Below the pieces are notes generated by a model. The model ran no database searches, had not been told where the DNA came from, and saw nothing but the letters and a program-made list of their open reading frames with translations. Shown here piece by piece: positions 11,159 to 11,837 of a stretch of 64,000 nt of DNA. Source of the DNA: a virus (taxonomy: Duplodnaviria; Caudoviricetes). A program made the translations under genes and the position numbers. The number at the start of each line of letters is the position of its first letter. Position 1 is the stretch's first letter. The stretch spans positions 582 through 64,581 of the IMG/VR virus record IMGVR_UViG_2547132108_000007. One strand, given 5' to 3'.

Positions 11159-11715
11159 TGTTGACGATAGTTGCTTCGGAAAAACTCGCCTACTTAACAA
11201 AGGAATGGAATCCGGCGGAAACACGCTCGTTCGATGTTTTGCGCTATCAGTACGCTGTGACGCTGAATTTCGTCTCGTACGTAGGGTTGGCGGCAATTGG
11301 CGGCTTACTAACGGGGCATTTCGCCGAAACAATGCTTGCGGCCGGTTCCTTCACGTTACTGCGCGTATTTAGTGGCGGCTTTCACTTCCGATCGCTTGAC
11401 GTCTGCGCAATCGTCACAGCGGCTATATTCGTGGCGATACCGTTGTTGGTGGCGGGGCCGTTGGCCGGATACACGGCACTACTTACGGCGACGGCAGCCG
11501 TACTCGTCGCGACGCGCGCGCCGACTAACCTGCAAAATACGCAATGGGTACGGGGGAGTGATTGTACCCGACTTGCAACCGTCAAGCGAGCGTATAAGGC
11601 TATTGCGGTGGCGATCGTGCTTACGAATTTTATCGTCGATTCCGATGTAATGGCGTTGGCATTCATAACACAGGCGTTGCTCTTATTGCCGCGAAGGGAG
11701 GTGAGCGTACAATGA
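11158..11715 (+). CDS. agrB: AgrB-family peptide-processing membrane protease
   Basis: LRVFSGGFHFRSLDVC carries the AgrB G-G-x-H-x6-C catalytic pair; ATRAP motif; hydrophobic profile. Confidence 0.88.
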   Translation: MLTIVASEKLAYLTKEWNPAETRSFDVLRYQYAVTLNFVSYVGLAAIGGLLTGHFAETMLAAGSFTLLRVFSGGFHFRSLDVCAIVTAAIFVAIPLLVAGPLAGYTALLTATAAVLVATRAPTNLQNTQWVRGSDCTRLATVKRAYKAIAVAIVLTNFIVDSDVMALAFITQALLLLPRREVSVQ

Positions 11716-11837
11716 GGACGACAATCGCGAAGATTATGTCCGTTGCTTCGGCTACGGTGGCTGGCGTATTCGTGTTCGTTTTGAAGGGCGGTATTGGAGA
11801 AATAAAAGCGCCAAATGAATTTTATAACAATAAATAG
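11712..11837 (+). CDS. agrD: AgrD-like propeptide 1 (41 aa) MRTTIAKIMSVASATVAGVFVFVLKGGIGEIKAPNEFYNNK
   Basis: ATGA overlap with agrB; amphipathic leader plus E-I-x-A-P-x-E tail matching AgrD tails. Confidence 0.8.
   Translation: MRTTIAKIMSVASATVAGVFVFVLKGGIGEIKAPNEFYNNK

Follow-up and report, generated by a model that had tools for sequence, protein, structure and literature searches.

The window analysed here is a stretch of 64,000 nucleotides that lies inside a 64,581-base source record classed as a complete provirus. It includes a prophage cassette of four tightly packed genes, all transcribed rightwards (plus strand) in the order membrane protein, agrB, agrD-like precursor and LytTR regulator, with a primase gene on one side and a Cro-like gene on the other; the agrB stop codon is overlapped by the start of the precursor open reading frame (ORF). 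A second, orphan precursor gene is located between the terminase large subunit gene and an 80-aa ORF. The coordinates of these features are given in Table 1.

Table 1. Features of the agr-type cassette and of the orphan precursor locus, in window coordinates.
Feature	Position	Strand	Basis
Multi-pass membrane protein, 218 aa, candidate receptor	10502..11158	+	Homology to kinase N-terminal membrane domain; kinase domain absent
AgrB-family membrane cysteine peptidase, 185 aa (R69, H76, C83, K147)	11158..11715	+	PF04647, E 3.4e-16
AgrD-like precursor copy 1, 41 aa, with leader, K25-G-G-I28 core and a P34-containing follower that begins at G29	11712..11837	+	
Lys25 codon (position -4), proposed ring-closing nucleophile	11784..11786	+	
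Stand-alone LytTR DNA-binding protein, 137 aa, without receiver domain	11849..12262	+	PF04397, E 2e-8
AgrD-like orphan precursor (copy 2), 37 aa, with the core of copy 1 and a more basic end to its leader	43240..43353	+	
15-nt imperfect direct repeats flanking copy 2 (43220-43234, 43352-43366), each with a ribosome-binding site	43220..43366	+	

The named AgrB relatives closest to that of the window are from Paenibacillus, Brevibacillus and their phages, and a search by sequence found no solved AgrB structure. Residues R69, H76 and C83 are invariant in 70 of 70 homologs and K147 is nearly so; they are set beside R70, H77, C84 and K139 of the S. aureus enzyme (PMC10482373). The Arg/His/Cys residues are likewise retained in 68 of 68 AgrBs paired with the lysine-type peptides described below, which rules out an inactive AgrB, and a chance or mis-called precursor ORF is ruled out by synteny in phages Abouo and Harrison and at 20 of 20 viral loci. 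Among 49 aligned neighbours, 45 match LytTR.

A promoter and terminator scan gave results at chance level. The search for repeats covered the region behind the cassette and the surroundings of copy 2; between the LytTR and Cro-like genes there is a perfect 20-nt palindrome (12436-12455) and a 13-nt inverted repeat (12295-12326), each a possible operator or terminator. A sigma-factor-like gene (12834-13472, weak TIGR02937 match) lies directly after the cassette, divergent from the Cro-like gene, and is a candidate target of the LytTR protein.

The membrane protein aligns with the N-terminal part of a 437-aa histidine kinase from Chengkuizengella (locus L025; hhalign probability 99.2%, E 2e-19), which has a HATPase_c domain and is encoded beside a response regulator, an agrB and a lysine-type agrD; the protein in the window stops before any kinase domain. 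It belongs to PHROG 15604 and has no Pfam match, and its predicted structure is all-helical (pLDDT 90.6) with no clear fold match: the best Z was 7.8, over 55 residues, Foldseek gave E values no better than 0.5, and the Atlas search returned unnamed clusters only. Where an agr system has an AgrC histidine kinase and an AgrA receiver-LytTR protein, the cassette thus encodes a membrane domain and a LytTR domain only, and it is predicted to be an agr circuit without a phosphorelay of its own, although the host may supply such partners. The pairing of a LytTR regulator with a co-encoded membrane protein, with no phosphorelay, resembles the LytTR Regulatory Systems of Streptococcus mutans (PMC6193735), whose abstract names no AgrB or AgrD; the membrane protein in the window differs in being kinase-sensor-related. 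Further marks of LytTR Regulatory Systems are inhibition of the regulator by its membrane protein and direct repeats that precede the operon promoter.

A short membrane gene upstream and a short LytTR gene downstream are found at 52 of the 68 Lys-type loci and 17 of 38 loci with Cys/Ser at position -5, as counted with profiles built from these same loci, and an independent rule based on length and hydropathy recovers the layout in 46 of 68 Lys-type loci. Since it is shared with the Cys/Ser loci, the layout is not special to lysine. Most of the loci collected (L003-L195), of Lys- and Ser/Cys-type alike, have agrBD flanked by a kinase-free AgrC-like domain and a stand-alone LytTR protein. Large viral contigs (130-218 kb; L003, L070-L079) carry the four-gene cassette too, with Ser(-5) peptides.

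The two precursors share the core K-G-G-I, with the lysine as residue 25 in both; in copy 1 it is followed by the tail G29-E-I-K-A-P34-N-E-F37. Numbered from the predicted cleavage site, the lysine is at -4, and -5 is Leu24 or Gly24. Cysteine is absent throughout both copies, and neither has serine or threonine from -8 to -1, in full agreement with the first-pass annotation, which had noted the missing Cys/Ser nucleophile and the lysine in both copies. The precursors therefore have neither the Cys/Ser(-5) that closes a canonical five-residue (thio)lactone nor the N-terminal cysteine at the ring start of homodetic peptides formed by an S-to-N shift. In other respects the genes are as in agr systems, with an AgrB-family peptidase that has its catalytic Cys and His, next to a precursor in the 40-50 aa range with a leader and a Pro/Glu/Leu follower. 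The helical hydrophobic moment of the copy 1 leader is moderate (0.39). Neither TIGR04223 nor PF05931 is matched by the window precursor, and TIGR04223 is matched only weakly by 5 of 37 family members (best E 0.013); a family profile run against the 64.6-kb record returns exactly two matches, copies 1 and 2.

The register was calibrated on 30 TIGR04223 loci, 22 of which could be parsed by pattern and eight of which could not. With the follower proline taken as +6, the residue at -5 is Cys in 15 and Ser in seven of the parsed loci, with no exception among the 22. S. aureus AgrD, with C28, M32, D33, E34 and L41 (PMC10482373), agrees with this numbering, E30 of copy 1 (+2) matching E34 and F37 (+9) matching L41. 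Calibration on the precursor of P. polymyxa was sought as well, and none of the 30 loci from matches in 52 of 136 genomes was AgrD-like. The tail alignment proposed in the first-pass annotation is borne out by these anchors, and its cut between I28 and G29 is a prediction from them.

Loci were gathered by AgrB similarity only, from viral contigs, named genomes, two phage records and 136 genomes representing the family of one hit (with a match in 87, the loci being those among the matches listed). The 199 AgrB hits gave 177 parsable downstream peptides, with 22 unparsed, and 161 distinct sequences: 68 with Lys(-4), 38 with Cys/Ser(-5), 50 with Ser/Thr/Cys(-4) and five other or unclear. These proportions are not population frequencies, the survey having been seeded by the window AgrB. 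No Lys-type peptide (0/68) has Cys or Ser at -5, and among the 73 peptides that lack both Cys/Ser(-5) and Ser/Thr/Cys(-4), 68 have Lys at -4; set against a core-region lysine background of 2%, this is not chance. Conservation of K25 among homologs, which the first-pass annotation had proposed as a check, is thus a family trait, and its wider claim that an AgrD-like precursor of this kind needs another chemistry is well supported. The annotation had also held that homologs with Cys/Ser at -5 would count against it; 38 such peptides exist, but in other AgrB lineages and never with Lys(-4), which supports a swap of nucleophile.

Lys-type peptides were found in 22 viral records and at 46 genome loci, with AAA (41) or AAG (27) as the lysine codon. 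The surroundings of this lysine vary widely, whereas the lysine itself is constant and stands at a fixed distance from the tail. Glycine or proline is common at -3/-2; position -1 is I, L, V or F in 60 of 68, and +1 is glycine in 51 and a canonical-like F, H, Y or N in 16, a pattern that supports a cut before +1. The tail anchors are weak in 16 of the 68, and 40 of the 68, unlike the two window copies, have a Ser, Thr or Cys somewhere in -6 to -2. Arginine never occurs at -4 (0/161). It is missing also at +3, +4 and +7, where lysine is common, so its absence at -4 is weak evidence for a nucleophile and was set aside as proof of one.

Re-reading the 27 dropped or unclear rows gave no Cys/Ser counter-example among them: six group with Lys-type AgrBs, four of these with K-x3-G peptides and the other two (L052, L092) with AgrBs near the Lys lineages and no recognisable precursor; L144 has Cys(-5) with a longer tail, and most of the remainder fall into a group of their own, in which a membrane gene follows. 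Ten further Lys-type loci from eight genomes were found among 301 sampled from the class, a biased sample because a Lys-type profile was used for the search. Twelve metagenome loci yielded a peptide in four, one Lys-type and three Ser(-5).

Several variants were seen in the survey. The Ser/Thr/Cys(-4) peptides typically read T-N-S-x-x-x followed by H/N-R-P-E-T-P (L099, L101, L115-L119, L122, L124-L126 and others), and 29 of the 50 precede a long protein (some 520 aa) that is LytTR-like in part. Fourteen peptides have Cys at both -5 and -1 (C-x-x-x-C; L095-L098, L102, L111, L114, L120, L127, L134, L135, L150, L160, L177), with a possible second ring link or disulfide. Lys-type precursors from L002, L011, L012, L015, L016 and L018 have a highly charged rather than hydrophobic leader end, and five of these six are followed by a LytTR-like protein of about 237 aa. 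At L167 and L170 (genomes G042 and G040) agrB-agrD pairs occur in clusters of two or three spanning no more than 8 kb; the pairs lie on opposite strands and have differing Lys-type cores.

An AgrB tree was built without the peptides (113 rows remaining after thinning 156 at 62% identity; IQ-TREE quick mode, midpoint root). The 41 Lys-type rows require two changes on this tree compared with a shuffled mean of 33.6, and four changes with FastTree on all 156 rows. They share a clade (SH-aLRT 99) with 21 Cys/Ser(-5) rows, and the Ser(-5) cassettes in that clade have the same layout. The motif preceding the ring occurs as T-N-C, T-N-S and T-N-K, so that the lysine occupies the place of the nucleophile, and one subgroup of the Ser/Thr/Cys(-4) class is derived from Ser(-5) relatives by a one-residue deletion. 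Lysine persists across 21 peptide clusters at 50% identity, and K-G-G-I-G is retained with synonymous codon changes in 11 copies while the flanks drift, four of the 11 having been chosen by that motif. Because lineages are shared, the Lys-type counts are non-independent; the pattern points to one or two old switches retained over large distances rather than 68 independent events, and there may have been a single origin. Across the 68 Lys-type pairs no AgrB column tracks the lysine through all Lys lineages, and the best candidate for a co-varying residue, L80, was rejected since it differs between them.

Copy 2 is not a conserved late gene, since no AgrD-like ORF occurs at the terminase loci of related phages (0/69). 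The direct repeats around it are a possible insertion footprint. A 14-nt inverted repeat (within 43220-43375) covers the copy 2 start codon and the ribosome-binding site of the next gene, an arrangement that may reflect translational coupling. Extra copies away from agrB were found in one of 24 viral records searched (G344) and in family genomes G061, G072 and G076, and five of six such copies (L367-L372) have the K-G-G-I-G core. They lie at differing sites, so repeated insertion of precursor genes has occurred in this phage group.

Staphylococcal AgrB/AgrD autoinducing peptides (AIPs) are thiolactones, with Ser lactones in the S. intermedius group. Pilin sortases, which are Cys-His-Arg transpeptidases, resolve a thioacyl enzyme with a lysine epsilon-amine; the isopeptide is of the kind considered here, but it joins two proteins and AgrB is not involved. 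We suggest that the leader would carry the precursor to the membrane, where AgrB would bind the follower and, by analogy to S. aureus, Cys83 would cut between I28 and G29 to give an acyl-enzyme thioester. The epsilon-amine of Lys25 would then attack the thioester, producing a 16-atom side-chain-to-C-terminus isopeptide macrolactam over K-G-G-I. A host protease would trim the leader, leaving an N-terminal tail, and the product would probably be sensed by the cassette's own membrane protein, which lacks a kinase domain, together with its LytTR-only protein, as gene order and homology suggest; copy 2 would add precursor with the same core from the late operon.

The computed ring is 16 atoms both for Cys/Ser(-5) and for Lys(-4), because the side chain of lysine exceeds that of cysteine by three atoms, the equivalent of one backbone residue; the canonical ring is 16-membered (PMC10482373). 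The Ser/Thr/Cys(-4) class, which the first-pass annotation had missed, lowers confidence in both the cleavage point and the size of the ring. These 50 of 161 peptides show that -4 can hold a nucleophile, to judge from their sequences, yet they would form a 13-atom ring if the cut were unchanged, so that either the ring or the cleavage point has to be non-canonical. As a subgroup arose by deletion, either rings can vary in size or the cleavage point can shift; the 16-atom argument is weaker for it, and the match between Lys(-4) and Cys(-5) is suggestive only. The lysine amine is mostly protonated at neutral pH, which also counts against attack by Lys25. Taking these points together, we give about an even chance (roughly 0.5) to the reading that this is a phage agr-type cassette whose ring-closing residue has changed from Ser/Cys(-5) to Lys(-4), with a cut after I28 and a Lys25 isopeptide macrolactam as its product.

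A lysine lactam could also form after a cut one residue later, behind G29, to give a five-residue K-G-G-I-G ring of 19 atoms. Glycine at +1 in 51 of 68 peptides would suit such a cut, five-residue rings are the rule, and the Ser(-4) class keeps 16 atoms only if it is cut one residue later. At the distant AgrB locus of Brevibacillus reuszeri (L039, genome G002), moreover, the peptide reads K-G-G-F-M, with the lysine at -5 in the canonical register. Proline at +6, present in every one of the 22 canonical precursors parsed, argues for the earlier cut, as do the alignment of E30 and F37 with S. aureus E34 and L41 (PMC10482373) and the 16 of 68 peptides with F, H, Y or N at +1, like canonical followers, and we think the later cut improbable as a separate reading. 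A lysine lactam with either cut, taken jointly, is favoured at clearly better than even odds from the sequence evidence. Modification or cross-linking of the lysine without a self-closed ring, through host acylation or transfer of the AgrB thioester elsewhere, has some precedent in that Paenibacillus AIPs can be further modified by AgrE N-acetylation (PMC12180512). No modifying enzyme is present in the cassette, however, which is bounded by the primase and Cro-like genes, and the same four-gene layout recurs in 52 of 68 Lys-type loci, so we hold little expectation of such a product.

The remaining readings dispense with a bond to the lysine. AgrB might cut the follower and leave the thioester to be resolved by water, with the lysine acting as a receptor contact or as a mark for the leader protease. 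S. aureus AgrB products are described as hydrolysing slowly to the linear form (PMC10482373), no residue dedicated to amine ligation could be picked out in AgrB, and a protonated lysine is a weak nucleophile. A linear signal is nonetheless unlikely, if still to be reckoned with, in that the lysine and its tail distance are fixed amid variable neighbours, unlike a specificity contact, and the lysine fills the T-x-[C/S/K] slot to the exclusion of Cys/Ser(-5) in 68 of 68 peptides. For a head-to-tail ring closed by the alpha-amine after removal of the leader, homodetic AIPs in Clostridia (PMC8251862) and the frequent Gly/Pro at -3/-2 provide some encouragement; the known examples arise from a Cys thiolactone by an S-to-N shift, which is impossible here, a tetrapeptide ring of 12 atoms is hard to close (PMC11199569), and an invariant lysine would be unnecessary, so there is scant reason to expect it. 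It is very improbable that the peptide is an unprocessed decoy or relic that jams the host agr system. Phages could gain by jamming host signalling, as discussed in PMC3901668, but an intact AgrB accompanies the peptide in 68 of 68 cases, the follower is conserved, and the Lys-type peptide of Chengkuizengella adjoins a full kinase and response regulator. The first-pass annotation had left a lysine lactam, a head-to-tail ring and a linear peptide open; the homologs favour the lactam, and its phrase "new autoinducer class" keeps the standing of a proposal. The sequence pattern of the Lys(-4) class is solid, and the isopeptide macrolactam is its most likely product.

In relation to staphylococcal Agr, the system shares the AgrB Arg/His/Cys residues, the leader-core-follower order, the acidic +2, Pro +6 and hydrophobic +9 and, if the lysine lactam forms, a 16-atom ring; it differs in having Lys(-4) and no Cys/Ser nucleophile, four ring residues, no AgrC kinase domain or AgrA receiver domain in the cassette, and a phage location. 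The Cys thiolactones, rare Ser lactones and S-to-N rearranged rings described (PMC8251862; bioRxiv 2021.04.18.440348) include the clostridial homodetic peptides (Molloy 2021, PMC8251862), which would have an AgrB-primed amide ring in common with a lysine lactam; there a Cys thiolactone shifts to the alpha-amine, whereas the window precursors lack Cys and would offer the lysine side chain as the amine. Pp-AIP1/2 of Paenibacillus polymyxa (PMC12180512) are also AgrB/AgrD products in the Paenibacillaceae, but are described as chromosomally encoded, Cys-containing hexapeptides, N-acetylated by AgrE, that regulate antibiotics. According to the same source most mined AgrD families are uncharacterised, and Lys-type precursors may be among the approximately 34,600 predicted AgrD of its data S4. 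Microviridins (PMC4979651) contain Lys-Glu lactams and so the same lysine epsilon-amine isopeptide, formed by ATP-grasp ligases with side-chain acids rather than by AgrB. The gene order of the cassette is that of phages Abouo, Davies, Emery (Hargreaves 2014, PMC3901668) and Harrison/Paisley, and the Abouo and Harrison peptides have Lys(-4), Gly(+1) and Pro(+6). The 2014 report describes AgrB, AgrD and AgrC-like membrane proteins without a kinase domain in Davies, Emery and Abouo; its main text mentions neither lysine nor cysteine, and it is not known to have put chemistry or function to the test. In the literature covered, AgrB ring closure is known through Cys or Ser only, and a search that reached few subscription papers found no Lys-closed AIP. 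As the cassette is built like an agr peptide system but lacks both the Cys/Ser nucleophile and the kinase, we set it apart as the Lys(-4) AgrD class.

If Lys25 does close the ring, the lactam would be a new reaction for the AgrB family and a new ring type among ribosomal peptide signals. An amide ring would not open the way thiolactones do; the product would resist hydrolysis and could not rearrange by an S-to-N shift. Such signals would probably escape screens that trap thiolactones and, largely, current AgrD profiles too, and the Lys type is common in this sample, with 68 distinct precursors. A broader picture, which we put forward only tentatively, is that of widespread signals in phages and Paenibacillaceae in which AgrB acts as a lysine-isopeptide macrocyclase. 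Its 16-atom lactams would be hydrolysis-proof and would be sensed by an AgrC-sensor/LytTR pair without a kinase, and in this phage group orphan copies in other operons would set the signal dose during the phage cycle, a form of communication unrelated to arbitrium. The cassette is itself a candidate system for phage communication, its read-out being free of a kinase.
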